This document shows positions 8,334-52,486 of a DNA stretch of 58,783 nucleotides, one piece after another. Within the stretch, counting starts at the first letter, position 1. Each line of letters starts with the position of its first letter. The translations under genes were made by a program, and so were the position numbers. This DNA is from Nitrososphaerota archaeon. Its GTDB lineage: Archaea > Thermoproteota > Nitrososphaeria > Nitrososphaerales > Nitrosopumilaceae. The stretch lies in the NCBI GenBank assembly GCA_032128215.1, contig JAQBHA010000016.1:1-58783 (forward strand), in the 5' to 3' direction. Under the pieces are notes generated by a model. The model saw only the letters and a program-made list of their open reading frames with translations. It had not been told where the DNA came from and ran no database searches.

Positions 8334-8527
8334 AAAAAGAGCATATACTCATTCCTAAACCTAATAGTAAATTCCAAAAAGTAAAATGTAAAGAATGTGA
8401 TGAAGAAAATATTGTATATTCACATGCATCAACACCAGTAACATGCAAATCATGTGGTAATGTTATTGCAGAGCCAACTGGAGCAGTAGCAACTCTTCAT
8501 GGTGAAATTTCAGGAACTGTCGAGTAG
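8330..8527 (+). CDS. rps27e: 30S ribosomal protein S27e (eS27)
   Basis: 65 aa. Has the zinc ribbon 'KVKCKECDEENIVYSHASTPVTCKSCG'. An ATGA overlap links it to rpl44e. Confidence 0.9.
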   Translation: MKKEHILIPKPNSKFQKVKCKECDEENIVYSHASTPVTCKSCGNVIAEPTGAVATLHGEISGTVE

Positions 8528-9094
8528 ACTATAATCGTCCATAGTGTTTAGATTAAATGCGATCCTTTTATCATTCAATATATGATATATTGTTTCTACT
8601 GTATCAAGATTATTAATTTCATTTGCATTGATTATTGAAACACCAGTAAAGTAACATTCTTTATTTTGAAAGATAACTGAGAAATCTGATTTTAAGCCTA
8701 GAGAGATTAAAAAATCCCTTGTCACAAGATAACTTGCCCAGATTTTTTCATGATGATGTGAGTTAACAATTTTTTTTATAATTTCCTCATCAAGTAACGG
8801 TAAATCGCCAGATACCACTAAGATGTCATCTTTTATTGAACGGAGAATTAAGTTTAGATCCTCCACATATCCGTTACCAGGTGTCTCAAATGTCTCAAAC
8901 CCAGCATTTTGTAACATTTCTTTAGTTTTAGGAGAATGTGGACTAGTTGCTACAATTATTTTTGAAAAGCAATTTGAATTTTGAAGGGCAAAGACCACAT
9001 GTAAAATTGTGGGATGTATGTGTTTTAGTAAGAGTTTTTCTTCATTTATTTTCATTCGGCTTCCTTTGCCCCCGGCCATAACTAGTCCTATCAT
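8510..9094 (-). CDS. cobY: adenosylcobinamide-phosphate guanylyltransferase, archaeal CobY-type (MobA-like NTP transferase fold)
   Basis: 194 aa. Has the 'VMAGGKGSRM' nucleotidyltransferase motif. It is the last gene of an overlapping cob operon. Confidence 0.65.
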   Translation of the reverse strand: MIGLVMAGGKGSRMKINEEKLLLKHIHPTILHVVFALQNSNCFSKIIVATSPHSPKTKEMLQNAGFETFETPGNGYVEDLNLILRSIKDDILVVSGDLPLLDEEIIKKIVNSHHHEKIWASYLVTRDFLISLGLKSDFSVIFQNKECYFTGVSIINANEINNLDTVETIYHILNDKRIAFNLNTMDDYSLLDSS

Positions 9095-9831
9095 ACTGAT
9101 GCAAAAATTACAAGAGAAGATAGTCGCGTAATCTCATTAGTAGCACCTAAAACATCTCCGGTTATACCCCCAAAGCTTCTAGTGGAGAGTGTAAGAATTA
9201 TCAGTGTAAAAGTAATACCTGCTCCAAAGATGATTAGTCCTGTTGTTCCCCCTATTATCACTAAGGGAATAATAGTGATTGTTCCAGCTATTACCAATCT
9301 TCTTTTATCCTTCATTATTTGTACGAATGGGGAATTAGAGCCAACTGCAGCAGAACGACCAAGACTTGCTTGTAATACCATGGAAAATTTTGATAATATT
9401 TCACTTAGAAGGATTGCTTGAAATAGCACTAACCCACTCAATAAAGAGAGCGCTAAAATCATTCCTACAACATAGAGAACTATTGAAAGAATTCCTGCCG
9501 AACCTGTTGAAACATCTTTCATAGCTTGCAATTTTTTGTCTTTATTTCCTTTTGCCATAATTCCATCAGCAAAGTCTGCAAGACCATCAATATGGTGCAA
9601 TCCAGTGATGATTGCTAACGAGCTTACAACCATGAGCGATACTATTAGTGGATCCAAAAATAATGAAAGTCCTAAAGCAAATGAACCTATGATTAATCCG
9701 ATAACAATTCCCACAATTGGAAAGATGTACATATATTTTGCAACAGTTTCAAGATTAGTGTTGCTTGCAGGAATTATTGTTAGAAATGAAAATACTGAGC
9801 CAATTTCTCTAAGCATGAATCCACCAACCAA
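9091..9831 (-). CDS. cobS: adenosylcobinamide-GDP ribazoletransferase (cobalamin 5'-phosphate synthase)
   Basis: 246-aa polytopic membrane protein with a 'GLHHIDGLADFADG' motif. A 4-nt overlap links it to cobY. Confidence 0.85.
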   Translation of the reverse strand: MVGGFMLREIGSVFSFLTIIPASNTNLETVAKYMYIFPIVGIVIGLIIGSFALGLSLFLDPLIVSLMVVSSLAIITGLHHIDGLADFADGIMAKGNKDKKLQAMKDVSTGSAGILSIVLYVVGMILALSLLSGLVLFQAILLSEILSKFSMVLQASLGRSAAVGSNSPFVQIMKDKRRLVIAGTITIIPLVIIGGTTGLIIFGAGITFTLIILTLSTRSFGGITGDVLGATNEITRLSSLVIFASV

Positions 9832-10780
9832 GATAAGATAAAATGATCATTATTGGAATTGTAAAAATCACACAGAATAAAATCGATGTTATCTTCATCA
9901 ATGCAATTGCAGAACATAGATGCGATTTTGTTAGAACTTGGTTTCCTTCACCAATACAATAATGATCAATTTTTTCAAATCTTGCCCCTAATGCCCCTGC
10001 AAGAGCAGCCATGGGATAACCTGCGTTAGGACTTTTAGTATTTTTACCATCTCTTTTCATTATGAGATATGATTTTTTCCAATCGTTGCCAAGGATCATG
10101 GCACCAATAATCATTACAAAACTTGTCATTCTTGCAGGAAGATAATTAAGTATATTATCACAATTTGCTCCAAACCATCCTATATTTCTAAAAATACTAG
10201 TTTTGTAACCAATCATAGAATCAATTGTGTTAACTATTCGATGTATGAATGCACCTGGAATTCCAAAAAAAGCAAAATAAAAGAGCGGCCCAGTAATTCC
10301 ATCTACAATATTCTCACTAATACTCTCAAGAGTACCTGAGAGTAAGTGATTTTTATCTAAATTCTTGGTATTTCTCTTTACAATCATGGATAGATTTGTC
10401 CTAGCAGCCTCAAGATCATTTTTCTCTATTGATAACATTACAGCCATGGCATGTTTTTCCATACCACGTATTGCAATTGTTGTTTTAAGTAATATTATAC
10501 CAATTACAACTGATACAATTGATGAAACAAATTCAATTGTAATATTATTAATTTCAATATTTAGAAAAACAAGAATTGTTGTTACAAAAGCAGTTACTGA
10601 TACAACTAAAATTATTCCACCGATCTTTTCTGCGTGAGGAGATTTGTTTTTTATAAGTGGAACAATCTTTGCAATCAAAGTTCCAATCCATGAAGTGGGA
10701 TGGAATTTATTTTTGGGATCACCTATGATAAGATCTAAAATAAGAGCAAAGGTAACCACCATAATAGATTCAAGTATCAT
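9809..10780 (-). CDS. cbiB: adenosylcobinamide-phosphate synthase CbiB/CobD
   Basis: 323-aa membrane protein with the CobD/CbiB family layout ('HPTSWIG', 'SPNAGYPMAALAGALG'). It overlaps both neighbours. Confidence 0.85.
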   Translation of the reverse strand: MILESIMVVTFALILDLIIGDPKNKFHPTSWIGTLIAKIVPLIKNKSPHAEKIGGIILVVSVTAFVTTILVFLNIEINNITIEFVSSIVSVVIGIILLKTTIAIRGMEKHAMAVMLSIEKNDLEAARTNLSMIVKRNTKNLDKNHLLSGTLESISENIVDGITGPLFYFAFFGIPGAFIHRIVNTIDSMIGYKTSIFRNIGWFGANCDNILNYLPARMTSFVMIIGAMILGNDWKKSYLIMKRDGKNTKSPNAGYPMAALAGALGARFEKIDHYCIGEGNQVLTKSHLCSAIALMKITSILFCVIFTIPIMIILSYLGWWIHA

Positions 10781-11604
10781 TTAATGAGCCTCTCTATAGC
10801 TTTGATGTTAATACTTGAATTTACTAATTTACTTAATTTTTCTATTTCTCTATCCATTATCTTGATATTTTTCTTGTTCCAAATCATAGTTTTAGGTTTA
10901 ACACCTAGTGAGTCCTCTTCAGGTAGTGAAAAGTTGGCCATAGGGATTGTTCCAAATACAGGTTTTCCTGTGTATCGCGTAATTTTTCTAAAGCCAGGTT
11001 TTAGAATCTCTATATCACCCCTGAATTTGTTAAAGACAAATCCTTTGACTAGTTTTCTATATTTTTGATCAAGTAATTGTAATGTCCCAACAAGACTTGC
11101 AAAAGAACCACCTCTATCTGTATCTGTAATTAAAATAACAGGGGAGTTTGATTTCGCTGCTACTCTCATATTTGCAATATCAAATTTTTCCAGATTAATC
11201 TCAGCTGGAGAGCCAGCTCCCTCCATTATTATAAGATCATATTTTTTGTTAAGTATATCAAGGGAATCAGAAATAAGGTTTAGACCATGTTGTAAAACGA
11301 ATTTTTTGTAATATTCATTTGCATAAAGTTTTTTATAGAATTTTCCTTGCAAAAAAATTGAGCTTCTATTATTTCCAAGTGGTTTTAGGAGAATTGGATT
11401 CATGTGAGGCGAAATTTCTGCCCTAGCGGCTATAGCCTGCATTGCTTGAGCACGAGAAATCTCAAAATCCTTACCTATGTAGGAATAATTTGACATATTT
11501 TGTGATTTAAATGGAGATACACTATATCCAGAATTTGCAAAAATTCTACATAGTGCAGCAACTAAGATAGTTTTACCTGCTCCAGATGAAGTGCCCTGAA
11601 TCAT
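10777..11604 (-). CDS. cobQ: cobyric acid synthase CobQ-like protein, ATPase (CbiA/CobQ N-terminal) domain only
   Basis: 275 aa. Has the 'GTSSGAGKT' P-loop, 'EGAGSPAEINL' and 'DTDRGG' motifs. No C-terminal glutamine amidotransferase domain is present. Confidence 0.65.
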   Translation of the reverse strand: MIQGTSSGAGKTILVAALCRIFANSGYSVSPFKSQNMSNYSYIGKDFEISRAQAMQAIAARAEISPHMNPILLKPLGNNRSSIFLQGKFYKKLYANEYYKKFVLQHGLNLISDSLDILNKKYDLIIMEGAGSPAEINLEKFDIANMRVAAKSNSPVILITDTDRGGSFASLVGTLQLLDQKYRKLVKGFVFNKFRGDIEILKPGFRKITRYTGKPVFGTIPMANFSLPEEDSLGVKPKTMIWNKKNIKIMDREIEKLSKLVNSSINIKAIERLIK

Positions 11605-11620
11605 TAGTGACTTTGTTAAG

Positions 11621-12697
11621 TTAAATCGCCTCCAATTCTTTGATGAGTTTTATATTATCTTTATGAGTTTTCACTGCAATTCTAATGTAGTTATTATTTA
11701 ATCCTCGAAATGAGTTACAATCTCGTATCAAAATGTTTTTCTTAAGTAATTTTTTTTGTAGAATATTAGATTTCATTTTAGTTTTAATTAAAATAAAATT
11801 AGCATCAGTATGTAAACATGAGAATCCATCAATTTTTGAAATAGAATCTCTTAAAATCCTTGTTTCTTTATTAATTATTTTAGAAGTTTCATCCAAGTAA
11901 TTATGATAGCATAATGCTGCACTTGCTGCCTTTTGAGCAATCCCACTTACATTCCAAGGAATTTTTATATTGTTTAGAACTGTAATTAGTTTTTTATTTC
12001 CCAGACCGTATCCTACTCGAATGCCCGCTAATCCAAATGATTTAGTTAATGAACGTAAAACAAAAAGATTGTTATATTTTTTTAAATATCTGACAACGGA
12101 TTGTTTAGAATCTGATAGTTCAATGAAACATTCATCCATAAAAACTAGTGTTGATCTTTTCTGTGATGTTGCAATTATTTTTTGCATTTTCTTTCTAGAG
12201 ATTAAAATTCCTGTTGGATTGTTTGGGTTACATAAGAATATACATCCTTTTTTAGGAATTTTTTTAATAAAAGTATCAAGATCGTTATTAAGATTCATTG
12301 TTTTAAAAAATAATAACTTTGAACCTTGCAGTTTTGCTGCTACCTCGTATTCACTAAATGTTGGAATAGGGATTAGCACGGAGGTTTTTTTATTTAGAAA
12401 AGCTTGACAAAAATTATAAATTATTTCAGTTGCACCATTTCCTACAACGATTTGATCTTCAGAAACTTTGGTGTACCATTTTAGATTTTTCCGTAATTCA
12501 GAAGAATCAGAATCTGGGTAAACGGATATTATTTTCATTTGTTTTGTAAGATATTTTTTTACACCTGGATGGTATCCGAGTGGATTAATGTTTGAACTAA
12601 AATCAATTATTCCTTGTTTTTTTGATTTAACTGAATACAGTCCCCCGTGTAATCTAGGTATGTGTTCTTTGACATTTTGGTTTGGAATTATTTTCAT
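11621..12697 (-). CDS. cobD: class I/II PLP aminotransferase-fold protein, probably L-threonine-O-3-phosphate decarboxylase
   Basis: 358 aa. HisC/CobD-like, with the 'LRSLTKSFGLAGIRVGY' PLP-lysine motif. It is the first gene of the cob operon. Confidence 0.6.
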   Translation of the reverse strand: MKIIPNQNVKEHIPRLHGGLYSVKSKKQGIIDFSSNINPLGYHPGVKKYLTKQMKIISVYPDSDSSELRKNLKWYTKVSEDQIVVGNGATEIIYNFCQAFLNKKTSVLIPIPTFSEYEVAAKLQGSKLLFFKTMNLNNDLDTFIKKIPKKGCIFLCNPNNPTGILISRKKMQKIIATSQKRSTLVFMDECFIELSDSKQSVVRYLKKYNNLFVLRSLTKSFGLAGIRVGYGLGNKKLITVLNNIKIPWNVSGIAQKAASAALCYHNYLDETSKIINKETRILRDSISKIDGFSCLHTDANFILIKTKMKSNILQKKLLKKNILIRDCNSFRGLNNNYIRIAVKTHKDNIKLIKELEAI

Positions 12698-21791: not shown

Positions 21792-22184
21792 TTATGCCTT
21801 TAGAACTGTTGACACTACATGGTCAACTGCTTCATTAAACTTGGTATCGATTTTATCCTGAACGTCTTTTAAGTTCAGATCCCCCGCTGCCAAAATTCTT
21901 TGAGATTCAGATTTAGCCTTTTCACTGGCATCCGAAATGATAGATTCAGCCTCTTTGGTAGCCATTTGAATAACCTGTTCTAGTAATCTGTCAATTTCCT
22001 TTTGGGCTTTTTGATTTAGCTGTTTTTTCATATCTCCGAGAGTTTCGTTAAGAGAATCAATATCAGATTCTAAACCAGAGAGTGCCACAATAATTTTATC
22101 AACAGTACCTGGTGAAACAGAGGTGGATAGAATCTCTTTTGTTATTGTCTTTGGGGCTTTTTTTTTTGAACCCTTGAGTTTCAA
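21792..22184 (-). CDS. coiled-coil hypothetical protein
   Basis: 130 aa, basic at the N-terminus with long heptad-like helices ('KEAESIISDASEKAKSESQRILA'). No secure family assignment. Confidence 0.5.
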   Translation of the reverse strand: MKLKGSKKKAPKTITKEILSTSVSPGTVDKIIVALSGLESDIDSLNETLGDMKKQLNQKAQKEIDRLLEQVIQMATKEAESIISDASEKAKSESQRILAAGDLNLKDVQDKIDTKFNEAVDHVVSTVLKA

Positions 22185-28299: not shown

Positions 28300-28689
28300 G
28301 TGAATACAGAAATTCGGTCATTATGGAGTTTGCCATCTGATAGATTTGAGTATGTTTTTGAAAGAATTAGAAATCAAATTGGCAAATTAGCCACAAATCT
28401 TGTTTCTAGTTCTACTCCTATGACAAATACCGACAAAATAGGATTGATCATTACAATAATTGCTTTCAGTATTGTAATTACTCCTATTGCGTTAAGTGAT
28501 TCTGATCCATACCATCTAAAATGGATATTTGAAGAGATAAGGGGCCAGGTGCCATTAATAGAAAACTCTTTTGGGAATCAAGGTAGTAGTCAATACACTG
28601 TAATTATCCATCTGAAATCTTCACCTGAATTTCATTTAGATGCAACAGAGAAAGTTATTTTAGGAAAATTTAGGTCTATAACAAATTAA
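28300..28689 (+). CDS. hypothetical membrane protein
   Basis: 129-aa ORF with a GTG start and one predicted TM helix ('IGLIITIIAFSIVITPIAL'). Confidence 0.35.
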   Translation: MNTEIRSLWSLPSDRFEYVFERIRNQIGKLATNLVSSSTPMTNTDKIGLIITIIAFSIVITPIALSDSDPYHLKWIFEEIRGQVPLIENSFGNQGSSQYTVIIHLKSSPEFHLDATEKVILGKFRSITN

Positions 28690-29354
28690 CTGTAATGTAA
28701 TACAATTTCGCTTCCTAACCGACTAATTTTTTTCAATTTTAATTTAGGAGATTTATGAATATTGGAAAATCCTTCACCTTCAACCAATGTAATAGCTTTT
28801 TGACCACCTACAATGTAGGGTGTAATTGTGATTATCAGCTCATCTACTACACCTAATCTGATAAATTCCCAATTAACAGTGCCTCCACCTTCTACAAGAA
28901 GAGTTTTAATTTTTTTCTTTGATAGAGATTTCAAGAGACTTTTGATGTCTACTTGATTTTTGCCTGCTATCATTATCTCAAGCGGATACTTCTTTAGTTT
29001 GGAAATATTTTGTTTTGATGCTTTTTTAGAAACTACTAATATTGTGGGGATTTTATTACAAGTTCTAATAATTTGAGATTTTTGGGGGATAGTTGCTTTG
29101 GAATCTAAAACAATTCGTATTGGGTTTTTACCTTTAACATATCTGACTGTTAAAAGAGGATTATCTCTCTTAACAGTATGAGAACCTACTAGAATAGCAT
29201 CTACTTTTGAACGTAATTTGTGAATACGAATTTTATCTTGTTTTGAAGATAACTCTGAATCACCAGTTTTTGTGGCTATTTTTCCATCAAGACTCATTGC
29301 TGCACTTAGAATCACTCTGGGTCTAGATTTTTCCATGAACAATTTTTCCTCCAA
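28686..29354 (-). CDS. arfC: 2,5-diamino-6-ribosylamino-4(3H)-pyrimidinone 5'-phosphate reductase (RibD C-terminal/ArfC-type)
   Basis: 222 aa. Has 'RPRVILSAAMSLDGKIATKTGDSELSS' and 'LLVEGGGTVNW' motifs of the RibD_C reductase family. It is the last gene of the rib operon. Confidence 0.85.
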   Translation of the reverse strand: MEEKLFMEKSRPRVILSAAMSLDGKIATKTGDSELSSKQDKIRIHKLRSKVDAILVGSHTVKRDNPLLTVRYVKGKNPIRIVLDSKATIPQKSQIIRTCNKIPTILVVSKKASKQNISKLKKYPLEIMIAGKNQVDIKSLLKSLSKKKIKTLLVEGGGTVNWEFIRLGVVDELIITITPYIVGGQKAITLVEGEGFSNIHKSPKLKLKKISRLGSEIVLHYS

Positions 29355-30513
29355 TCATTACTGCTCTAATTGTAGATTCACTAACTCTGTGTACAATTGA
29401 AGCATATGGATTATGCATTGGTTCTAAGTTTATTGCATGTTTGTCAATAAATACACAGTCAGCAAATTTACCAATTTCAATAACACCAATATTTTTTTGT
29501 AAAAGTTTTCCAGCATTTACTGTTGCCATTTTTAGAATTTGTTTTGGTGCAATTCTTTTACGATTCAAACCCATTGTAACCTTCCAGAGATAATCCATCT
29601 CACGAAACATATCAGGAGAATTTATCATTACGTTATCTGTTCCAATTGCAATATTACAGCCAGCTTTGAGCATATTTTCTGCATTAGGAATACCTTCTGC
29701 CAATGAAGAGTTTGCACGCGGACAAATTACAATTCCCCTAGTCTTCTTAGCAACTTGATGCAAATCTCTATGTGATGCATAGGTCATGTGAACAAGAAAA
29801 TGAGGTTTTAACAATAATGCACGTTGGGTCTCAGTTTTTTTCATTGTTCTTTTTGATAGGTTTGAGCTCTGAAGTGTTTCTTCAGAATGGATAGCTTTAA
29901 TCTTCGGAATTCGTGAATAAAATTTTAACATAGAATTACTGTTTTCGTTTGCGCCGCTAATACCTAGGCCATCACAGTTTTTTAAAAGAGTAGTGAGTTC
30001 TTGTCTTTTAGAATTAGGAAATGAAATGTTATTTCTAATTTGTTTGTGATCTTGGTAATATTCTAGCCTTCCAAGTATAACAGATCTTATTGGCAATGTA
30101 GATAACACTTTTTTGAGAAGAAATATGCCATCTAGGCCACCCTCTCGAAAATCAACAAATGTGGTAGTACCATTTCTTATCATAGAAATACATGTGTTTT
30201 TCATAAAATTTGCAAGATGTGAGGGGCTTGTTTTCTTTAGAATTTTTTGTTTTGCGCCTATAATAGGATGAATTTTTTCATCAACATCATTGTTTAATAA
30301 AATATCCTTTGCAATAGAATCTCCTATGTGGGTATGTGAATTAATTAAACCTGGAATTAATATTAATCCTTCACAGTCAATTGTATCCTCTTTTGAGTTT
30401 GGTCTAAGATTTGGTTTTATATTTTTAAAAAGTTCCTCAGAAATTTTTAGATTTGTAGAGGAAATAAAAGTTAATTCTTTGCCGTAAAGGATGCTTGCAT
30501 TTTTTAAAAGCAT
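29323..30513 (-). CDS. amidohydrolase-superfamily enzyme with a nucleobase-deaminase-type signature (Atz/Trz, guanine/cytosine/MTA deaminase-like)
   Basis: 396 aa. Has 'PGLINSHTHIGD' (HxH), 'AIHSEE' (HxxE), 'LVHMTYA' and 'AIGTDN' motifs. It overlaps arfA by 10 nt and arfC by 32 nt. Confidence 0.8.
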   Translation of the reverse strand: MLLKNASILYGKELTFISSTNLKISEELFKNIKPNLRPNSKEDTIDCEGLILIPGLINSHTHIGDSIAKDILLNNDVDEKIHPIIGAKQKILKKTSPSHLANFMKNTCISMIRNGTTTFVDFREGGLDGIFLLKKVLSTLPIRSVILGRLEYYQDHKQIRNNISFPNSKRQELTTLLKNCDGLGISGANENSNSMLKFYSRIPKIKAIHSEETLQSSNLSKRTMKKTETQRALLLKPHFLVHMTYASHRDLHQVAKKTRGIVICPRANSSLAEGIPNAENMLKAGCNIAIGTDNVMINSPDMFREMDYLWKVTMGLNRKRIAPKQILKMATVNAGKLLQKNIGVIEIGKFADCVFIDKHAINLEPMHNPYASIVHRVSESTIRAVMIGGKIVHGKI

Positions 30514-31259
30514 GATGTTTCTATAATTTCTGGTTTTTCATTTCCAGAATCCCTAATCTCCCTTATTTTATCAAGTGATTGTGTTGCTAACTTGGCAGCT
30601 TCACGTGAGGTTTTTCCAATTCCAATACCACAATTAAGGAATATACCAAGATCTTTTTTTATTCTATCAATGAAATCCCTTGCCATTTCTTTTGCATTAT
30701 CATTTGCAACAACCATAAAATTATCACCGCCCATAAAGAATGCCATTGATTTTTTATCTAAGAAAAATTCAGACATTAAAGAATAGAGTTTAAACATAAT
30801 TGAAGATATCTCGTAAGGAGATTTTGTTTTTCGTTTAGATGATAAATTATCTACATCAAAGTGCATAATAGTTACTTTCTGTTCAGAAAATCCATTAAGA
30901 AATCCATAGATATTGTGTTCTTTGTTTAAAATGACTTGATGTTGTTTACCCTCAAAAGCTTTTAAATTTGCATCAAACGGAGTCTTAGCAGATCCCACAG
31001 ACATTGAGAGGTTGAGTTCAAAGGATTCTTTGAGCATTTTTTGAATTGAAATATGATCATCAAGTGTTAATCCATTGGTTACAACAAAAAACTCATCCGA
31101 TCTATTCAGAAATGCCAAACAATTTCTTTCTGAGAATAATTTTTGAACTTGTTTGTACAATGAAGCTTGTAACATTTGGAGCTCATGTTCTCTGTCGCTA
31201 CCCAAAGTTAGTGTCCAAGGGCCATACTCATTAATTTTGATGATAGTGAGTTGAATCAA
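30504..31259 (-). CDS. arfA: GTP cyclohydrolase III (archaeal, FAPy-forming)
   Basis: 251 aa. The N-terminus 'MIQLTIIKINEYGPWTLTLGSDREHELQMLQASLY' closely resembles the MJ0145-type GCH III N-terminus as I recall it. Confidence 0.85.
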   Translation of the reverse strand: MIQLTIIKINEYGPWTLTLGSDREHELQMLQASLYKQVQKLFSERNCLAFLNRSDEFFVVTNGLTLDDHISIQKMLKESFELNLSMSVGSAKTPFDANLKAFEGKQHQVILNKEHNIYGFLNGFSEQKVTIMHFDVDNLSSKRKTKSPYEISSIMFKLYSLMSEFFLDKKSMAFFMGGDNFMVVANDNAKEMARDFIDRIKKDLGIFLNCGIGIGKTSREAAKLATQSLDKIREIRDSGNEKPEIIETSCF

Positions 31260-31260
31260 T

Positions 31261-31674
31261 TTATCTAATTTTTTCTAGTTCCTCTGAAATTCTTAATACT
31301 GCTTCTACAGCCCTTTCTGAAACTGGTCTGATTCGTGCGTAAGCTTGCCTTTCTTCTATGCCAGGTCCGGTAATTCCTAATGAAATGGGTTTTTTATGTT
31401 TTAATGAAAGCTTTGTAATACGTGTTACAGTAGCATTTGCTATTAGCTCATCATGTTTTGTCTGGCCTTTAATTACTGTACCAAGTGTCACTACACCATC
31501 AACTTCTTTTTTTTCAAGTAATGTTTCTATAATTAATGGCATATCAAAAATACCTGGAACTTTACAAGTGAATTTAACATTTAATTTGAGAAATTTTGCT
31601 TTTTCCAAAGCTACTTCCAGCATTCTTGATGTTATTTTATCATTAAATTCTGAAACTACTATAGCAATATTCAA
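31261..31674 (-). CDS. ribH: 6,7-dimethyl-8-ribityllumazine synthase
   Basis: 137 aa. Reads 'IAIVVSEFNDKITSRMLE...VPGIFDMPL...GTVIKGQTKHDE'. Confidence 0.9.
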   Translation of the reverse strand: MNIAIVVSEFNDKITSRMLEVALEKAKFLKLNVKFTCKVPGIFDMPLIIETLLEKKEVDGVVTLGTVIKGQTKHDELIANATVTRITKLSLKHKKPISLGITGPGIEERQAYARIRPVSERAVEAVLRISEELEKIR

Positions 31675-31676
31675 AA

Positions 31677-32351
31677 TTAATGCACCTTAGCATATTCTAA
31701 CAATTCTTTTCCATCAATAAATGGAATAGCATTTTGTTTTGCATATTTTTTTGCTTTTTCCACTGATAGGGCTGAATATGTTTCTGCATCCATCATTTCA
31801 CAAATAGCAGATACAGGATTCAATTTTGCAAGGTCTGTTAAATAGATGGACATTTCTGTATGTCCCCGTCTGTTTAAAAGTAAACCATCTACAGCAATCA
31901 ATATAGGAACATGTCCAGGGGTTTTAAATGATGAAATAAACTTGTTGTGTTGATTATCTGCCTTGGTTAGATTTGCCATTTCACGAATAGTAAGAGCTCT
32001 ATCTCTATCTGTAATTCCTGTGTAAGTTTGATAATGGTTAATTGAGATTGAAAAAGTTGGGTGATCTCCATATGGAGCTAATCCCATAATCATTTCCTTT
32101 GATTTTGAGTCAAAATGTGCAGAACTAGACAAAATTTCATGCATATAATTAAGACCAATCTCTTTCCCAAGAGAGTTGTTTATTGCAAGACATATCAAAC
32201 CTCCTGCATGCTGTCTCATTCGTGCAATGTGTTCTGGCGTAACAAACTCCGCTGCAACTACCATATCGATTTCATTTTCTCGTCCACTAGAATCATGAAG
32301 TAATACAAATTCACCTCTTTTTAGAGATAATAATGCATCATCAAGTGACAT
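31677..32351 (-). CDS. ribB: 3,4-dihydroxy-2-butanone-4-phosphate synthase
   Basis: 224 aa. Has 'HDSSGRENEIDMV' and 'RRGHTEMS' motifs. It is monofunctional, with no RibA fusion. Confidence 0.9.
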   Translation of the reverse strand: MSLDDALLSLKRGEFVLLHDSSGRENEIDMVVAAEFVTPEHIARMRQHAGGLICLAINNSLGKEIGLNYMHEILSSSAHFDSKSKEMIMGLAPYGDHPTFSISINHYQTYTGITDRDRALTIREMANLTKADNQHNKFISSFKTPGHVPILIAVDGLLLNRRGHTEMSIYLTDLAKLNPVSAICEMMDAETYSALSVEKAKKYAKQNAIPFIDGKELLEYAKVH

Positions 32352-32428
32352 AATAAAAAGTGATTTTCTCTAAGTATATAGTTTACTAAAAAACTAGTAA
32401 TTACCAATTAAATGGTAATGAAATAGGT

Positions 32429-33013
32429 TTATTTTAGAATATATTTTCCCAAAATATCAGTTTCAATATTAATCTTATCGCCCACTTTTTTTGATTGAAA
32501 ATTAGTAATTTTGACGGTGTGGGGGATTAAACAAACTGAAGCATTATTTTTTGAGACATCAACTACTGTCAAACTTATCCCATCAATAGCAATAGATCCT
32601 TTTTTAACAACAAATTTAATTAATTTTTTTGGAACTTCAAACCATATTTTAACTTCTTTAGGTTTTTTTTCAATTTTTTTTATTACTCCTACACCATCCA
32701 CATGACCTAATACAAAGTGCCCTTCCAGCCTATCACCTATTTTCAAGCTACGCTCAATATTCACTTTATCACCTGGCACCAAGTTTCCAAGATCTGTTTG
32801 TTTGATGGTTTCACCTATCATTTCAAAGTCACATTTATTTTTTGAAATCTTAGTGGCAGAAAGACATACACCATTTAATGCCACACTCTGCCCCACTTTA
32901 AGTCCTTTAGCATGGTTTCCTAAATTTACTGTCATCTGAAAAGCACTACGATTTTTTGTATTACGGGTTATTTTTTCTATTTGTCCTACTCCTTGAATAA
33001 TTCCAGTGAACAT
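32429..33013 (-). CDS. ribE: riboflavin synthase, bacterial/eukaryotic-type alpha chain
   Basis: 194 aa. Has the 'MFTGIIQGVGQI' N-terminus and an internal duplicated lumazine-binding barrel ('GHFVLGHVDGVG'). Confidence 0.9.
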   Translation of the reverse strand: MFTGIIQGVGQIEKITRNTKNRSAFQMTVNLGNHAKGLKVGQSVALNGVCLSATKISKNKCDFEMIGETIKQTDLGNLVPGDKVNIERSLKIGDRLEGHFVLGHVDGVGVIKKIEKKPKEVKIWFEVPKKLIKFVVKKGSIAIDGISLTVVDVSKNNASVCLIPHTVKITNFQSKKVGDKINIETDILGKYILK

Positions 33014-33115
33014 AGATTTGATTAAAATAATTCTGTATAAAAAGCATCAACTTGTATTGAAGATTTTTACACTACAAGATTCATCAGAAAAGTGTTGGTT
33101 TCTGGCATAAAATTT

Positions 33116-33967
33116 ATGGAAAAGATCCTTTATGGTGTTGCTAAACAATGGATTGCTGGAGAAACAATAGATGATGCTTTAGAATCTGCGAGAGATGTCT
33201 ATAAGAAAGGCAGACATGCAATTGTAAACAAATTAGGAGAGTATCATACTTCTAAACCAGTTATTATTAAAACAGTAAAAGAATATCAACTAATTTCTTC
33301 ATCATTTAGGAAATGGAAAGTAAGAGGTGCAATATCTGTTAAACCTACCCAAGTAGGGCTTTCAATAAGTAGAAAGGAATGTTTGAGAAATTTTGAAACA
33401 ATTATTAAAAATGCGTCTTTATCACACACATTTGTTTGGATGGATATGGAATCTTCAGATCATACTGATGAGACTATAGAAATTTATGATAATTTATTTG
33501 CTAGATACGAAAGATTGGGATTAGCGATTCAAGCAAATCTAAAGAGGACAAAAAATGATCTAATGGATTTACTCAAATATGGAGCAAAAATACGTCTAGT
33601 AAAAGGAGCATATAATGAGAATGCAAAGATTGCTTACAAATCAAAAAACAAGATTGATGAAAACTATCTAAGATTAATGGAGTTACTTTTTAGAGATGGA
33701 AATGAATTTGGGATTGCAACTCATGATTCAAGCATGATTAATCAGGCAATACGACTTTCAAAAATATACAAACGTAAATTTGAATTTCAGATGCTCAAAG
33801 GAATTCGTGATGAGTTAAAGCCAGATCTTATCAGAAAGGGATTTGTTGTATCTGATTATATTCCCTATGGAACAAATTGGCTTTCTTATTCTATTCGTAG
33901 AGTAAAGGAAAGAAAACGAAATATCTTACTTCTTGGAAGCTCTTTTATTCAATCACATCGAGTTTGA
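33116..33967 (+). CDS. proline dehydrogenase
   Basis: About 283 aa from ATG 33116; the track ORF begins at GTG 33092. It has the PutA-type ProDH barrel layout ('RLVKGAY', 'IATHD', 'EFQMLKGIR'). Confidence 0.75.
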   Translation: MEKILYGVAKQWIAGETIDDALESARDVYKKGRHAIVNKLGEYHTSKPVIIKTVKEYQLISSSFRKWKVRGAISVKPTQVGLSISRKECLRNFETIIKNASLSHTFVWMDMESSDHTDETIEIYDNLFARYERLGLAIQANLKRTKNDLMDLLKYGAKIRLVKGAYNENAKIAYKSKNKIDENYLRLMELLFRDGNEFGIATHDSSMINQAIRLSKIYKRKFEFQMLKGIRDELKPDLIRKGFVVSDYIPYGTNWLSYSIRRVKERKRNILLLGSSFIQSHRV

Positions 33968-35514
33968 GTCTGGGCTCGCATAAATTGTTGTAGATAGTTT
34001 TCACCACCGGCTCCCTTTCCTGTAGATCCTGAATGTTTCCAACCAACAAATGGTTGACTGCGTACTAAAGCTGCAGTTGTAGCACTCGCTGCTCTATTTG
34101 CATACACTGTACCTGCTTGAATTTTATCAAAAAAATCATCAACTTGTTTTTTGTCATCACTAAATATTCCAGCCGTCAAACCATATTCAGATTGGTTTGC
34201 AAGATTTATTGCTTCATCAAAATCGTCATACTGGTCTATGCATAGAAAAGGCAAAAACAATTCTTCCTTCATTAATTTATGATCTCTTGGAAGTTTTGTG
34301 ACTATAGTAGGAGTAACATAGTAACCATTTTGATACTCAGAATCATTCAAAATAGTTCCTCCTACAAGAATTTCTCCATCTTTTTTAGCTAATTCTACTG
34401 CTGCTTCGAATTTTTTCTTTGCAGCATCATTGATAACCGGTCCCAAAAAAACATCTCTTTTCCAGGGAAGTCCAATTTTAAGTGATTTTGTTTTCTCTAC
34501 TAGCTTTACAATGAATTTATCTGCAATCTCTTTTTGTACGTAGACCCTAGAGCATGCACTACATTTTTGTCCTCCATATCCAAATGCAGATCTCATAACT
34601 CCATCTGTTGCCTTGTCAAGATTCGCATGTTTCGTAACGATAGTTGGATTTTTTCCTCCCATCTCAGAAATGAATGGTTTGATTTCATTTTGAGTGAAAG
34701 TTTTGTATCCAGACATTCCTACTTCTCTCGAACCAGTAAATGCAATCCCATCAACATCTGGGCTTTCTATGAGAGTCTTACCCACTACACTTCCTGGTCC
34801 TGTTACAAAGTTAATGGCTCCAGCAGGTAATTTCTTGTAAATTGCGTTTACAAATTCAAATGAAGAAAGTGGAGTGTCACTAGCAGGTTTTAAGACAGTT
34901 GTGTTTCCTGTAATTAAAGCTCCAGTAGTCATTCCGATTGCTATAGCTGATGGAAAGTTAAAGGGAGCAATAATCCCCCATACCCCATATGGTTTAAGGA
35001 TGGTTCGAGTTTTTTCTTTTGGATTAGGATGTTCGGTTTCTTTTGAAAATCCTTTATTAATTTCCAATTGATAAGCATAAAATCTCATAAAGTCAATTGC
35101 TTCATCAACATCTCCCATAGCTTCGATTCTGGTTTTTCCATTTTCAAAGGACGTAATTGCTGATAGATGGAATTTTTGTTTTGAAAACAAGTCAGCGCAT
35201 TCTTTGAAAATTTTTGCTCTAGTTTGATATGGAGTATTACTCCATTCAAAGAATGCATATTTTGCTGATTTTATAGCATCATTGGTATCATTTGTGGTTC
35301 CTTTGGGAAACTTAGCAACAATAATTGTCGTATCAGAGGGCGATTTTACTTCAAATTGTATTTTAGAAAAAATTTCTTTACCGTTAATTATTAAAGGATA
35401 TTCTTTATTTAAATTATTTTTGACTTGTTCAGCTGCTTTTTCAAATTGTTCATGAAATACATCAGTTGCATTATTTGTTATTGCATTTCCCCATGTGAAT
35501 TCATTTTCAAACAT
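33949..35514 (-). CDS. 1-pyrroline-5-carboxylate dehydrogenase (aldehyde dehydrogenase family)
   Basis: 521 aa. Has 'EMGGKNP' and 'GQKCSACSR' ALDH catalytic motifs. It is convergent with ProDH and overlaps it by 19 nt. Confidence 0.8.
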   Translation of the reverse strand: MFENEFTWGNAITNNATDVFHEQFEKAAEQVKNNLNKEYPLIINGKEIFSKIQFEVKSPSDTTIIVAKFPKGTTNDTNDAIKSAKYAFFEWSNTPYQTRAKIFKECADLFSKQKFHLSAITSFENGKTRIEAMGDVDEAIDFMRFYAYQLEINKGFSKETEHPNPKEKTRTILKPYGVWGIIAPFNFPSAIAIGMTTGALITGNTTVLKPASDTPLSSFEFVNAIYKKLPAGAINFVTGPGSVVGKTLIESPDVDGIAFTGSREVGMSGYKTFTQNEIKPFISEMGGKNPTIVTKHANLDKATDGVMRSAFGYGGQKCSACSRVYVQKEIADKFIVKLVEKTKSLKIGLPWKRDVFLGPVINDAAKKKFEAAVELAKKDGEILVGGTILNDSEYQNGYYVTPTIVTKLPRDHKLMKEELFLPFLCIDQYDDFDEAINLANQSEYGLTAGIFSDDKKQVDDFFDKIQAGTVYANRAASATTAALVRSQPFVGWKHSGSTGKGAGGENYLQQFMRAQTQTRCD

Positions 35515-35694: not shown

Positions 35695-36543
35695 CTATTT
35701 ACAGGAAGAAATTACCTCAGAAATCATTCGAGATGCAAGATGTGATGTTCTGTCTTTGATATCATAGCTTGGACAGACCTCCATTATATCCATTCCAATA
35801 ATTCCTTGTTCTACTATAGTTTTTAGAAGATATACTGCTTCCAAATTTTTTAGACCCAAAGGTACTGGAACTGAAACTCCTGGAGCAAACGCAGGATCAA
35901 CACAATCCATATCAAATGAAACGTAGACATTCTTGCCAATTGTTTTTAATATCATTTTTGAGATTTCGTGTACTCCTTTTTCTAAGATATCAAAAGGGGT
36001 AATGACATTGACGTCGTATTTTTTTAGATTATCTAGTTCTTCTGGCTCTGGAGTTCTAATTCCTATCTGGAAACTAGTTTTTAGATCGATATTGGGCAAA
36101 ACGTCATAAAAAACTGAACCGTAATAGTTCTGGGTTGAACTCACCATATCAGGGTGGGCATCAAAATAAACCAAAGAGATTGGACCTTTTTTCTTTGAAA
36201 TCGCTTTTATTATATTCCTGGAAATGGAATGATCGCCTCCAATCACAATAGGGATTTTTGATTTTGAAATAATTCTTTCAAAAACTTCATCAATCTGATT
36301 CCTGGTAATGTCTCCATAATCGAGGATTTTTTTTTGTCCGACTCCTTTATACGGAAGACCAAGAAATTTTTTTCCATCCCTGGTGTAAGTGTCCCTCAAA
36401 TTTGAAATCTCTCGGATGAAATGCGGAGCTTCCGATGCTCCTTTTCTTAGAGCATGAGATTGAGATTCATCTGGAATTCCAAGAATCACAATTTCTGATT
36501 TGTCAAAATCAGTAGTATTTGCCCAACAAATAGTTTTTTCCAT
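35695..36543 (-). CDS. speB: agmatinase (arginase/ureohydrolase family)
   Basis: 282 aa. Has 'GGDHSIS', 'FDAHPD' and 'SFDMDCVDPAFAPG' Mn-binding motifs. Confidence 0.85.
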   Translation of the reverse strand: MEKTICWANTTDFDKSEIVILGIPDESQSHALRKGASEAPHFIREISNLRDTYTRDGKKFLGLPYKGVGQKKILDYGDITRNQIDEVFERIISKSKIPIVIGGDHSISRNIIKAISKKKGPISLVYFDAHPDMVSSTQNYYGSVFYDVLPNIDLKTSFQIGIRTPEPEELDNLKKYDVNVITPFDILEKGVHEISKMILKTIGKNVYVSFDMDCVDPAFAPGVSVPVPLGLKNLEAVYLLKTIVEQGIIGMDIMEVCPSYDIKDRTSHLASRMISEVISSCK

Positions 36544-43601: not shown

Positions 43602-44270
43602 CTACATAAAAATGGTTTTTTCATATTCATACAGAACTCGACTAATTACAATGTGTGATTCTAATGGAGCATCGTCAACATTTACTATGTATTCAAATCT
43701 GTTTTTTATTTCGTTAGAGAAATGACCTTTTGGAAATCCCCCAATAACAAGGCAGGTTTCATCGTTTAATTTTTTTGATACGTCTTCACATGAACTGGAA
43801 ACTCCCTCTGTAGATAAGCCTATGATTCGTTTTGGATTAATTTCTTTTAATAACTGATCAAATGTCATATCTTTTATTTCAAGAAGATTTTTACCATCTG
43901 CCTGAATTACTTTTTCTAAGAATAACTTTTCTACTAATCCAGCAAATCTATGATATGATTTAGGTAGATGCACATCATTTGCTATGAAAATGACTTTGTC
44001 TTCAATTGTATGTACATATACTGAAATTTTTTTTTTATAATAAAGAGGAATTGTACATGCTTCCAATAATGAAATATGTACAAGATCAGGTCTTCCTCTT
44101 TTTATTTCATTTTTGATTCCTTTCATTGCCCCATAATGCCATGAATTATCTAAAAGAATCTCTGATGGATTTTTCCCAAGTTTTCTACTATGAGAGATAA
44201 CTGAATTATGATGATGTAGTTCTTTTGGAACTAATTCTAGTGAGGATTCTGCTAGTATTAATGAAAGCAT
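43602..44270 (-). CDS. nep1: ribosomal RNA small-subunit methyltransferase Nep1 (EMG1, SPOUT)
   Basis: 222 aa. Reads 'LILAESSLELVPKEL' ... 'RGRPDLVH'. It overlaps the upstream gene's stop codon as TAATG. Confidence 0.85.
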   Translation of the reverse strand: MLSLILAESSLELVPKELHHHNSVISHSRKLGKNPSEILLDNSWHYGAMKGIKNEIKRGRPDLVHISLLEACTIPLYYKKKISVYVHTIEDKVIFIANDVHLPKSYHRFAGLVEKLFLEKVIQADGKNLLEIKDMTFDQLLKEINPKRIIGLSTEGVSSSCEDVSKKLNDETCLVIGGFPKGHFSNEIKNRFEYIVNVDDAPLESHIVISRVLYEYEKTIFM

Positions 44271-45448
44271 TATTGATATGCAATAATTCCAGCTTCAATA
44301 AGATATTTTATGCCTGAGACAAAATCCCCATCCGAAATTAATCCTGATGACCACCATTCAGCATTATTTCTAATCCATGATGGAATTTCATCTGATGGTT
44401 CAGAGTTTTTTTCAACTTTCTGAATTTTCATAATGTCATTTTGAATTAAATATTCAATTCCATTTAGAAAATCAGAATCAGTAATAGTTCCTTCAGACCA
44501 CCAAGCAGCATTATTTTTTATCCATTGAGGAATTTCTTGCTTGGAGTTAGTTTTTAGAGTATCATCTGGAAAGGCGTATAACCAAACTGCTCCAGATTTT
44601 GTTTTATCTTTTAGAGTACCTGAAATTACAATATCTTCTTGAATAAAAGAAACAGATAATTCATTAGTGTTTATTCCGCGATATGTCACCTTAATTCCTG
44701 AACCAACTAACTGTGGATGTTCAAATCTACTAGTAATTTTCTTTAGAAATTCTCCATTTTCAGTTTCTATTGGATTTATTTTTTCTAGAAAAAATACTCC
44801 GCCTTCTTTACTCACTAGTTCAGTTGCAAATTCTTCTTGTAGAGGATTGATTACTATATGTTCTTTGTCGGAGTAAGAATAATCGATTTTATCTGTTGCT
44901 ATTTTATTACAAACGTTATTACGCCATTCTTGTGACGATGAAATTGCATCAAGCATTAACTGACCATGAAGTAATTCATGATATATGATGATAAGATTAT
45001 CCACTTTTTGAGAACGTAGATCTTTTTTGTCAGTGGGATTAATCACATCTGGATTAAATTTTATAGTATTATCACAATCCATTGTAATAATTCCTTTAGA
45101 GCTTGTTGTAATTTTGCACTGCCATGAATAAGTGCCACCAACTAAAACTCCTCCTTCATGTTCTTCAGGGACGGTAAAACCTGCAAGACGAGTTTCAACT
45201 ACATTAACAACTAAGTCATTAATGTCAGAAAGTTTACAAGGAATTGTAACAATTTTTGGCTTTTCAAATGTTTGTAGAATTCCAGAAACATCTTTTTTGG
45301 CAATATCAAGTTTTAAAAATTCATCTAAAAGATTTTTAAAAATTTTTTGTTCTTCTATTGATGGAACAATATATTTGTCTTCAAATGAATCAATACTTCC
45401 AGAAACTAATGGGACAAGTAATAAAATAAATAAATTCAAAAGTATCAT
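44270..45448 (-). CDS. secreted HExxH protein (putative zinc metallopeptidase) with a tandem Trp-rich C-terminal module
   Basis: 392 aa with a signal peptide. Has 'IIIYHELLHGQ' (HExxH at nt 44966-44980). Two ~37-aa C-terminal repeats read 'IP.WI.NNA.WWS.G.I.D.DF..GI.YLI'. Confidence 0.6.
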   Translation of the reverse strand: MILLNLFILLLVPLVSGSIDSFEDKYIVPSIEEQKIFKNLLDEFLKLDIAKKDVSGILQTFEKPKIVTIPCKLSDINDLVVNVVETRLAGFTVPEEHEGGVLVGGTYSWQCKITTSSKGIITMDCDNTIKFNPDVINPTDKKDLRSQKVDNLIIIYHELLHGQLMLDAISSSQEWRNNVCNKIATDKIDYSYSDKEHIVINPLQEEFATELVSKEGGVFFLEKINPIETENGEFLKKITSRFEHPQLVGSGIKVTYRGINTNELSVSFIQEDIVISGTLKDKTKSGAVWLYAFPDDTLKTNSKQEIPQWIKNNAAWWSEGTITDSDFLNGIEYLIQNDIMKIQKVEKNSEPSDEIPSWIRNNAEWWSSGLISDGDFVSGIKYLIEAGIIAYQ

Positions 45449-45467: not shown

Positions 45468-46604
45468 TTAAGAATTTATACTAATTTGTATCTGTCTTTT
45501 GAATTCATCCCAGGCAGGTTTTGGATTACCATCTGTATCAATTAAACCAGCATTGCAAATGTAATGACTTAGTCGCTCAATCACATACTCACTACTCCCA
45601 ATACCTGAAGGATCACCTATGCTTATTGATCCTTCAATAGTATTTGGAATAATATCACATGTTCCCTCTGGTTTATCGTATTGTCTATACCAAGTAACAA
45701 ATTCTAGTTTTGATTCATTATCTCTGAAAAAATCAAATACTGTTTTAACAAAATCTGTTTGATCTTTTTGATTGCCATTTACAAAATCAGCTGTACTCCA
45801 ACTTATCTCAAAAATCCCCACATTTTTATCTGGAATCATTTCTATAATTTTTTCTAGATCAGCTCTTGCCGCTTGAGGATTTTTGTTTATTTCATTAAGA
45901 GAGTCTACTGGAAAATAACTAAAAGCAACAAAATCGCCATCACCAAGTTCTTTAACTATATGACTAAGATTTTTGTTAATTACTCCATGTAATGAAAATA
46001 CATTACCAAATTTTACATCAGAGTGTTTTTCTTTTAAAGAGCCATATACTACATCAAAAAGTTCTTTGTATACTGGAATATTTTCTTCAGAGTATCTGAA
46101 ATATTCTTCTGCATTTCCTGCAATAATAACAGAGTCTATGTTGTCATAGCGTGTAAGTATATCATCAAGAACTTTGATAAGATTGTCTTCTGAAATTGAA
46201 TTCAAGCTTGGTCTTCCTATCCAATTTGGAAATGGGCCTAACGTTTTTCCATTAATTATGGAAAAGTAAAGGGTTACTTTAAGATCATTTTGTTTGTTGA
46301 AGTCCATCCAGAGATCAGATTGTCTCCAATCATAATTTCCTTTTTCAGGTTCAATTAAATTCCAAAAAAGATAGAGATTAGTTCTACCAATCCCTGTAGA
46401 AGAAGCTTGCGCGTAATAGTTTTTTAAATCGTCAAGAGTGTTTTTGTTTGATGAAGGATTAATGATCAGACCAAGCTTTTCATTATGAGATGAAGATTGT
46501 ATAAAACCAACATCTGGTGAAAATAAAAATGCAGAAACAATTGCCACTATAACGACTGTAGCAATCATTACTCCAATTATTTTTTTATCCACAAGTGATG
46601 CCAA
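45468..46604 (-). CDS. membrane-anchored or secreted TIM-barrel glycoside-hydrolase-like protein
   Basis: 378 aa with an N-terminal TM helix. The segment 'LFWNLIEPEKGNYDWRQSD' resembles the 'W..IEP..G.YDW' motif of clan GH-A enzymes. The assignment is tentative. Confidence 0.5.
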   Translation of the reverse strand: MASLVDKKIIGVMIATVVIVAIVSAFLFSPDVGFIQSSSHNEKLGLIINPSSNKNTLDDLKNYYAQASSTGIGRTNLYLFWNLIEPEKGNYDWRQSDLWMDFNKQNDLKVTLYFSIINGKTLGPFPNWIGRPSLNSISEDNLIKVLDDILTRYDNIDSVIIAGNAEEYFRYSEENIPVYKELFDVVYGSLKEKHSDVKFGNVFSLHGVINKNLSHIVKELGDGDFVAFSYFPVDSLNEINKNPQAARADLEKIIEMIPDKNVGIFEISWSTADFVNGNQKDQTDFVKTVFDFFRDNESKLEFVTWYRQYDKPEGTCDIIPNTIEGSISIGDPSGIGSSEYVIERLSHYICNAGLIDTDGNPKPAWDEFKRQIQISINS

Positions 46605-52090: not shown

Positions 52091-52486
52091 TCACTGTTTT
52101 TCGATCAAAATTCCACGATCGTCAAATCCAACAATTTTGGCCTTTGATCCAATTGGAAGATCTGATGGTTTTGAAATTCTAGCCATAAAGCCTGAAATTC
52201 TAAGGTTAGAGTTATCAAGATTAAGTACAACCCAGGCATAGGGGACATATTTTTCAAATCCTGCTGGAGGAACTGTGATGATAGTATATGTTGCAATAGA
52301 ACCTTGGCCCTCAAGAATGACATTTTCAAATTCCTTATTTCCACAATTTTGACAATAATATACAGTCGCTAAATGCAATTCCCCACATTTTTTACATTTT
52401 CTTGCGATTACTTTGCCTAATTTGATTGCATCAATGAATTCCTGTTTGGAAGACAATTTACACACTTTGGAATATATGTACGGCAC
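52091..52486 (-). CDS. DUF35 OB-fold/zinc-ribbon protein (thiolase-associated scaffold)
   Basis: 131 aa. Has a 'CKKCGELHLATVYYCQNCG' rubredoxin-like ribbon followed by an OB-fold. It overlaps the thiolase gene by 29 nt. Confidence 0.8.
   Translation of the reverse strand: MPYIYSKVCKLSSKQEFIDAIKLGKVIARKCKKCGELHLATVYYCQNCGNKEFENVILEGQGSIATYTIITVPPAGFEKYVPYAWVVLNLDNSNLRISGFMARISKPSDLPIGSKAKIVGFDDRGILIEKQ

Follow-up and report, generated by a model that had tools for sequence, protein, structure and literature searches.

The riboflavin cluster on contig JAQBHA010000016.1 of a Nitrosopumilaceae archaeon (GenBank assembly GCA_032128215.1) raises the question of what an amidohydrolase-superfamily gene is doing among the enzymes of flavin synthesis. 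We analyzed the entire stretch of 58,783 nucleotides (~33% G+C), called the window below, in which this gene (AMH) stands on the minus strand between arfA and arfC (Table 1). Besides the phosphatase step, deamination is the only step of archaeal riboflavin and F420-precursor synthesis for which we found no biochemically assigned enzyme, and a preliminary description of the locus had put AMH forward as a candidate for this deamination or, alternatively, as a substitute for the formamide hydrolase ArfB. Our reading, to which we give a probability of roughly 0.8, is that AMH is the orthologue, in Nitrosopumilaceae, of 'PyrD', the pyrimidine deaminase predicted for archaea. The proposed candidacy as a deaminase is backed by the active site, by a fold of the COG0402 type, by linkage to arfA and arfC and, in other lineages, to cofG and cofH, and by an RbkR-type operator.

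The profile classification suggested in the preliminary description placed AMH in NCBIfam family NF005552 (PRK07213) at 327.4 bits, against a cut-off of 294, with residues 1-387 of 396 covered. AMH aligns to this family end to end; the family name, 'chlorohydrolase', is a legacy label with no functional meaning. The sole Pfam matches were Amidohydro_1 (E=1e-39, end to end) and Amidohydro_3. The closest homologues are Nitrosopumilaceae proteins with identities of up to 91-93%, and one homologue that is 70% identical over 100% of AMH (P0116) bears the SEED name 'Pyrimidine deaminase archaeal predicted'.

All four motifs from which AMH had been described as deaminase-like are present: NSHTHIGD (residues 58-65, with the HxH pair), AIHSEE (207-212, with HxxE), VHMTYA (241-246), and GTDN (291-294). 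The catalytic residues within them are almost invariant. In an alignment of 115 sequences (AMH and 114 full-length representatives at 50% clustering), H60, H62, H209, E212, H242, and D293 were each found in at least 113, and all six were retained in 75/75 sequences of a phylogenetically broad alignment, A3. Judged from these alignments, the active site of AMH is a complete one of the mononuclear deaminase type (H60, H62, H209-x-x-E212, H242, D293). A second set of residues is conserved specifically in the AMH family (D65, K88, D121-F-R-E124, R149, C264-P-R266, N294, and R376). By the alignment and the predicted strands, the residue conserved after predicted strand 4 (143-148) is R149 rather than a lysine.

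An AlphaFold model built on the A3 alignment had a mean predicted local distance difference test score (pLDDT) of 95 and a predicted template modeling score (pTM) of 0.93. The modeled fold is a (beta/alpha)8 barrel with an N/C-terminal beta-sandwich. The top 50 Foldseek hits of the model all belonged to the amidohydrolase superfamily, with query TM-scores (TMq) between 0.69 and 0.87, and the nearest solved structures, by fold and by profile, were all COG0402-type deaminases or dechlorinases. They include the methylthioadenosine (MTA)/adenosine deaminase homologues 4gbd, 4dyk, and TM0936, the isocytosine/8-oxoguanine deaminase Vcz (7ww2; TMq 0.85-0.86), guanine deaminases (TMq ~0.80), and AtzA and TrzN. 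Sequence identity to the solved COG0402 relatives is 15-22%, and by sequence the AMH family is a distinct family within the COG0402 deaminase subgroup.

The likeness to these enzymes extends to the chemistry of the site. With the COG0402 deaminases (7ww2; the guanine deaminases 2uz9, 6ohb, and 2i9u; the MTA/S-adenosylhomocysteine (SAH) deaminases TM0936 (1p1m), 4f0r, and 4gbd; AtzA and TrzN), AMH shares not only the fold (TMq 0.80-0.87) and the metal ligands but also the HxxE proton shuttle and the histidine of strand beta-6. The difference lies in the substrate, which is a free base or nucleoside for the known enzymes and presumably a phosphorylated ribitylamino-pyrimidine for AMH. Guanine and isocytosine deaminases take the 2-amino group off a 2-amino-4-oxopyrimidine ring. 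The same transformation is needed on 2,5-diamino-6-ribitylamino-4(3H)-pyrimidinone 5'-phosphate (DArPP), the product of ArfC, which supports a role of AMH as a deaminase in this pathway.

The limits of the family were explored by an HMMER search that covered 1.84 billion cluster representatives exhaustively; 181 of them matched AMH at E<=1e-30. NF005552 was the best match for all of ten divergent members (234-320 bits, with the next family at no more than 124 bits). In a profile search, no full-length member scored below 283 bits, and the full-length proteins that came next, most of them named MTA/SAH deaminases, reached 145 bits at most. A hidden Markov model (HMM) of the family separated members (299-581 bits) from outgroups (at most 180 bits). 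Judged by these scores, the AMH family is discrete; it is also widespread in archaea. Named members come from Nitrosopumilales, Nitrososphaerales, Bathyarchaeia, Methylarchaceae, Methanosarcinales, and Methanothrix, from metagenome-assembled genomes of Njordarchaeia and Nanoarchaeia, and from haloarchaea, including Halobacterium salinarum pNRC200. The haloarchaeal homologues score within the family and retain nearly all of its signature residues.

Each gene of the minus-strand order given in the preliminary description (ribE, ribB, ribH, arfA, AMH, arfC) was confirmed by a profile match, and the window arfC encodes a stand-alone RibD_C protein by Pfam. The end of arfA overlaps the beginning of AMH by the 10 nt that had been reported. 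The 32-nt overlap reported between AMH and arfC holds for the longest arfC reading frame, from a TTG at 29354. The arfC ATG at 29336, preceded by GGAGG, is kept in 74/78 related loci and the TTG in 53/78, so that the more widely conserved ATG, and with it an overlap of 14 nt, is better supported. With either arfC start, arfA, AMH, and arfC are spaced closely enough in the sequence for translational coupling. A 129-amino-acid open reading frame (ORF) without a Pfam match (28300-28689, plus strand) lies tail to tail with arfC, with a 4-nt overlap at the arfC stop.

The window was also searched for enzymes that might otherwise cover the neighboring steps. Neither a creatininase nor a CDA domain was found by Pfam among the 46 window ORFs scanned, tblastn of the whole 58.8-kb window with an ArfB-like creatininase query gave no match, and the CDA zinc motif H/C-A-E...PCxxC was absent from all six frames of the window. 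The statements of the preliminary description that a RibD CDA-fold deaminase domain is absent here and that the operon is without a creatininase-fold ArfB therefore held for the window as a whole.

The 77-nt spacer between ribE and ribB contains a pair of adjacent palindromes and a TATA-like element (Table 1). The palindromes fit the thaumarchaeal RbkR operator consensus, TTAC-N10-GTAA, which is usually found in tandem (Rodionova et al., 2017; PMC5397151), and they are the only two matches to it in the window. At least one exact site occurs in the matching spacer of 62/71 related loci; overall, 76/122 exact sites fall in these spacers, which make up ~1% of the 843 kb of sequence in total. The TATA-like element is conserved in related loci as TTTATAAT/TATATAAT. 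Because a tandem operator and a TATA-like box stand between ribE and ribB, the genes ribB-ribH-arfA-AMH-arfC probably share a promoter of their own under RbkR control, and ribE is probably transcribed separately. From the position of the TATA-like element, the leader of the ribB-to-arfC transcript is probably short or absent.

Close relatives keep the gene order of the window. A search of the genome collection with the AMH protein yielded 80 Nitrosopumilaceae genome loci, all 80 collinear with the window; 69 have the full ribE-ribB-ribH-arfA-AMH-arfC order and 11 have shorter versions of it. Since this sample is phylogenetically narrow, more distant lineages were sampled as well. Nitrososphaerales (loci L081 and L082) have ribB-ribH-ribC-arfA-AMH; Bathyarchaeia (L083) and a low-GC lineage (L171) have AMH-arfC-cofG-cofH, with both F0 synthase subunits above NCBIfam cut-offs in L083. 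In Methanothrix (L085), arfC is divergently adjacent to AMH, and on two other methanogen contigs (L087, L090) it lies one or two genes downstream. In the methanogen-type loci, AMH is always followed by a universal stress protein (Usp) gene and then a CBS-pair gene (L084 6120-7464; L085 6148-7446; L087 6128-7487; L089 6195-7761) or by the CBS gene only (L090 6194-7072), and arfC sometimes comes just after.

A metagenome scan, using an alignment tighter than the diverse family alignment, added 80 loci. Of these, 43 are Nitrosopumilaceae-like and repeat the gene order of the window. The other 37 are distant, with AMH less than 55% identical to the window protein, and their neighbors were counted by tblastn. 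A riboflavin or F0 gene stands beside AMH in 35/37 distant loci: arfC in 28, arfA in 23, an ArfB-like creatininase in 19, ribE in 10, ribB in 9, and cofG/H in 5. The commonest distant order is ribB-ribH-(ribC)-arfA-AMH-arfC-arfB-ribE. One of the two distant loci with neither rib nor cof neighbors is a 1.5-kb contig lacking flanking sequence. RibA (GTP cyclohydrolase II) was not seen in place of ArfA in any Pfam-annotated AMH neighborhood, an arrangement that would have spoken independently against an ArfB role; the tblastn census had no RibA query. The synteny comparison proposed in the preliminary description thus came out in favor of linkage, to rib genes in 80/80 close loci and to rib or cof genes in 35/37 distant ones.

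These neighborhoods bear on the unlikely alternative that AMH acts on some other substrate, such as guanine, isocytosine, 8-oxoguanine, MTA/SAH, 5'-deoxyadenosine, or a damaged or side-product pyrimidine, with the rib linkage reflecting housekeeping or damage control. Such a role would fit homologues annotated as 5'-deoxyadenosine deaminase, nucleoside deaminase, or cytosine/adenosine deaminase-related hydrolase, an identity of ~20% to any characterised enzyme, and the existence of AMH members without rib neighbors. AMH nevertheless falls far below the curated cut-offs of every named deaminase family, among them those for guanine deaminase (TIGR02967, 69.8 against 375.4 bits), DadD (NF005557, 106 against 522), and MTA/SAH deaminase (NF012037, 66 against 779). 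Linkage to arfC, arfA, and cofGH, moreover, recurs across Nitrososphaeria, Bathyarchaeia, and methanogen lineages in several gene orders independent of one another, which would hardly be expected of an unrelated salvage enzyme.

The same counts speak to the second proposal of the preliminary description, that AMH is a non-orthologous replacement for ArfB, cleaving the formamide of the ArfA product, 2-amino-5-formylamino-6-ribosylamino-4(3H)-pyrimidinone 5'-phosphate, where the rib operon has no creatininase-fold gene. AMH does lie directly downstream of arfA and overlaps it, neither the 58.8-kb window nor any of the 80 + 43 Nitrosopumilaceae-type loci holds a creatininase gene, and amide hydrolysis is possible in principle for amidohydrolase-superfamily enzymes. 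The proposal is contradicted by clusters in which both genes are present: the AMH family shares a cluster with a creatininase-fold ArfB-like gene, assigned by fold and context and scoring below the cut-offs of named creatininase subfamilies, in L088 and in 19/37 distant loci, and there AMH is therefore no alternative to ArfB. The HxxE site, close structural and profile relatives that are without exception deaminases or dechlorinases and include no hydrolase of amides or formamides, and AMH-arfC-cofG-cofH clusters without arfA also count against it, as do creatininase-like genes reported in cultured Nitrosopumilaceae (PMC12625717). Taken together, we regard the replacement of ArfB by AMH as very improbable. 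AMH does not match the creatininase fold of ArfB (PF02633), and the mutual exclusivity with ArfB in rib clusters that a functional substitute should show is not seen.

Since creatininase-like sequences of cultured Nitrosopumilaceae are mentioned in a 2025 paper (PMC12625717), an ArfB probably exists elsewhere in this genome. The Nitrosopumilaceae-type clusters (43 loci among L112-L170) have ribE in front and no arfB, and the distant Nitrososphaeria-like clusters (L092-L119) have arfB and ribE after arfC. Judging from these gene orders, the cluster has evidently been rearranged in the Nitrosopumilaceae lineage, with arfB moved elsewhere. A dual role, in which AMH, after the loss of arfB from the Nitrosopumilaceae rib cluster, would deformylate the ArfA product besides deaminating the ArfC product, seems to us very unlikely; we say the same of a separate conjecture, that in a clade labelled Actinomycetota (described below) bacteria have taken over an archaeal-type deaminase for the pathway of F420, of another deazaflavin, or of a pterin.

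What favors deamination over other steps is most plainly seen in the L088 cluster, ribB-ribH-arfA-AMH-arfC-creatininase-ribE, which has a dedicated gene for every enzymatic step save deamination and dephosphorylation, with AMH as its sole unassigned gene. The ribH of L088 (3771-4236) is called as two fragments of 74 and 65 amino acids in an otherwise intact cluster, probably through a frameshift or assembly error. Known phosphatases acting on 5-amino-6-ribitylamino-2,4-pyrimidinedione 5'-phosphate (ARPP) in other organisms are HAD-family enzymes. Dephosphorylation is the other step left without a gene by elimination in L088, the ARPP phosphatase is listed as a pathway gap (PMC8305020), and the conserved basic residues of AMH could hold a phosphate; AMH might on these grounds be the missing archaeal ARPP phosphatase. 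We consider this the most remote of the alternatives, as the mononuclear HxH/H/D site with HxxE and the beta-6 histidine is typical of deaminases and there is no phosphatase among the top solved relatives of AMH. We favor the pyrimidine deaminase because AMH alone is left unassigned in clusters such as L088, because its active site is of the deaminase and not the phosphatase type, and because it is linked to lumazine synthase and to CofG/CofH, the two consumers of the deaminated pyrimidine.

The case for AMH as the archaeal pyrimidine deaminase is built on its fold, the residues of its active site, the family to which it belongs, its synteny, and the operator motif; from these we infer a substrate, a metal, a reaction, and a mode of regulation. 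In the proposed mechanism, one divalent metal (Zn or Fe) would be held by H60, H62, H209, and D293 in the (beta/alpha)8 barrel and would activate a water molecule, with E212 of the HxxE motif and H242 shuttling protons. The hydroxide would attack C2 of DArPP and ammonia would be released, the product being 5-amino-6-ribitylamino-2,4(1H,3H)-pyrimidinedione 5'-phosphate. The basic family-specific residues K88, R123, R149, R266, and R376 may hold the 5'-phosphate and the ribityl tail. After dephosphorylation, the product would pass to lumazine synthase for riboflavin and, in other lineages, to CofG/CofH for F420. AMH would be translated from a ribB-ribH-arfA-AMH-arfC message whose promoter carries the tandem RbkR-type operator.

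In reaction type and pathway position, this proposal corresponds to the N-terminal domain of bacterial RibD and to yeast Rib2, which are zinc-dependent enzymes of the CDA fold. That fold and the (beta/alpha)8 barrel of AMH are unrelated, and AMH would be an analogue, not a homologue, of those enzymes. The creatininase-fold formamide hydrolases ArfB (MJ0116) and BrbF act at a neighboring pathway step, and their genes often share a cluster with AMH; the proteins differ from it in fold and reaction, and the genes co-occur rather than replace each other.

Several points weigh against our reading. Synteny without the elimination argument cannot separate deamination from other steps next to ArfC, and both the sequence of steps and the precise form of the substrate (ribityl or ribosyl, phosphorylated or not) come from the biochemistry of M. 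jannaschii rather than of this organism. Some members of the family have no rib neighbors, namely those of haloarchaeal megaplasmids, of one Methanosarcinales locus, and of the Actinomycetota-labelled clade. The haloarchaeal members, one of them annotated 'nucleoside deaminase', lie on megaplasmids without riboflavin neighbors at L172 4992-6011 (Halobacterium salinarum pNRC200, VNG_RS11445) and L173 4992-6044 (Natrinema thermotolerans). The membership of the earlier candidates MJ0699 and HVO_2483 in the AMH family would follow from the SEED name and the scores of haloarchaeal homologues. Finally, we found no enzyme assay or genetic test of any AMH-family member in the searchable literature.

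The clade labelled Actinomycetota or Acidimicrobiia (L086 5001-6263; P0186, P0406, P0421) has a GC content of 65%, and its score against the family HMM is 489 bits. It retains all of the catalytic and almost all of the family-specific residues, and its neighbors are typically actinobacterial genes with no rib genes among them. It could reflect horizontal transfer or a different role in bacteria.

The identification of AMH with an archaeal pyrimidine deaminase is a rediscovery of a prediction more than 15 years old that is already in SEED/RAST. What appears to be the same family was proposed from comparative genomics as 'PyrD' by Osterman, Overbeek & Rodionov (2010). It was proposed again by Rodionova et al. 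(2017; PMC5397151), who placed it in 15 RbkR regulons, noted that Archaea lack orthologues of the deaminase domain of RibD, and already covered Nitrosopumilales. Pfeiffer & Dyall-Smith (2021; PMC8305020) listed HVO_2483 and MJ0699 as candidates still requiring experimental confirmation, and no gene for the archaeal deaminase is named in 2026 reviews of riboflavin biosynthesis. AMH apparently belongs to the same family as the SEED 'Pyrimidine deaminase archaeal predicted (EC 3.5.4.26)' and its candidates MJ0699 and HVO_2483, with the same clustering and co-occurrence rationale; by the operator upstream of ribB, it would also fall in the same proposed RbkR regulon, and we see no substantive difference between the two. 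The preliminary description had called the archaeal deamination enzyme unassigned, which stands insofar as no biochemical test has been reported and fails insofar as the same family was proposed in 2010 and 2017 and annotated in SEED. The novelty it implied is lost to the published 'PyrD' prediction (PMC5397151, PMC8305020) and to the SEED name carried by P0116. What is new here are the counts of co-clustering with ArfB-like genes and the cofG/cofH clusters; the confident structural model adds to the evidence.

Table 1. Genes and control elements of the riboflavin cluster, in window coordinates.
Feature	Position	Strand	Evidence or remark
arfC, archaeal 2,5-diamino-6-ribosylamino-4(3H)-pyrimidinone 5'-phosphate reductase	28686..29336 (longest ORF to TTG 29354)	-	TIGR01508, 208.9 bits, cut-off 186
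AMH, amidohydrolase-superfamily gene	29323..30513	-	396 amino acids, ATG start; NCBIfam NF005552; SEED 'Pyrimidine deaminase archaeal predicted' ('PyrD'); proposed DArPP deaminase
arfA, GTP cyclohydrolase III	30504..31259	-	Pfam GCH_III, E=1.5e-50
ribH, 6,7-dimethyl-8-ribityllumazine synthase	31261..31674	-	TIGR00114, 122.7 bits, cut-off 84.6
ribB	31677..32351	-	TIGR00506, 215.5 bits, cut-off 177
TATA-like element TATATA	32375..32380	-	directly downstream of operator, ~25 nt upstream of ribB ATG; putative promoter element
two adjacent TTAC-N10-GTAA palindromes	32383..32418		match published thaumarchaeal RbkR operator consensus (PMC5397151)
ribE, bacterial-type riboflavin synthase	32429..33013	-	NF006767, 223 bits, cut-off 155

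Elsewhere in the window, immediately beside ribE, a proline dehydrogenase gene (plus strand) converges, with a 19-nt overlap, on a 521-amino-acid ORF (minus strand) whose sequence reads like an aldehyde dehydrogenase (33092-35514 for the pair); an arginase/agmatinase-family gene follows at 35695-36543. A cluster for late steps of cobalamin synthesis lies on the minus strand at 8510-12697, comprising a MobA-like NTP transferase, CobS, CobD/CbiB, a CbiA/CobQ-like P-loop protein, and a class I/II aminotransferase. At 52091-53627 (minus strand), a thiolase gene overlaps a small OB-fold/zinc-ribbon gene (DUF35-type, ChsH2-like), a pairing typical of the archaeal acetoacetyl-CoA thiolase/HMG-CoA synthase complex. 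Two adjacent minus-strand ORFs of 392 and 378 amino acids (44270-45448 and 45468-46604) have no Pfam match at E<=0.001, and the match of the ORF at 21792-22184 to Pfam 'Phage_connect_1' (E=6e-4, below the cut-off) was taken as noise.

If AMH is the archaeal pyrimidine deaminase, this would be a plain example of non-orthologous displacement, with an amidohydrolase barrel in place of the CDA-fold domain of RibD and Rib2, and widespread archaeal annotations such as 'chlorohydrolase', 'amidohydrolase family protein', and '5'-deoxyadenosine deaminase' would be corrected. The counts of co-clustering with ArfB and the cofG/cofH clusters sharpen the case for assaying AMH.

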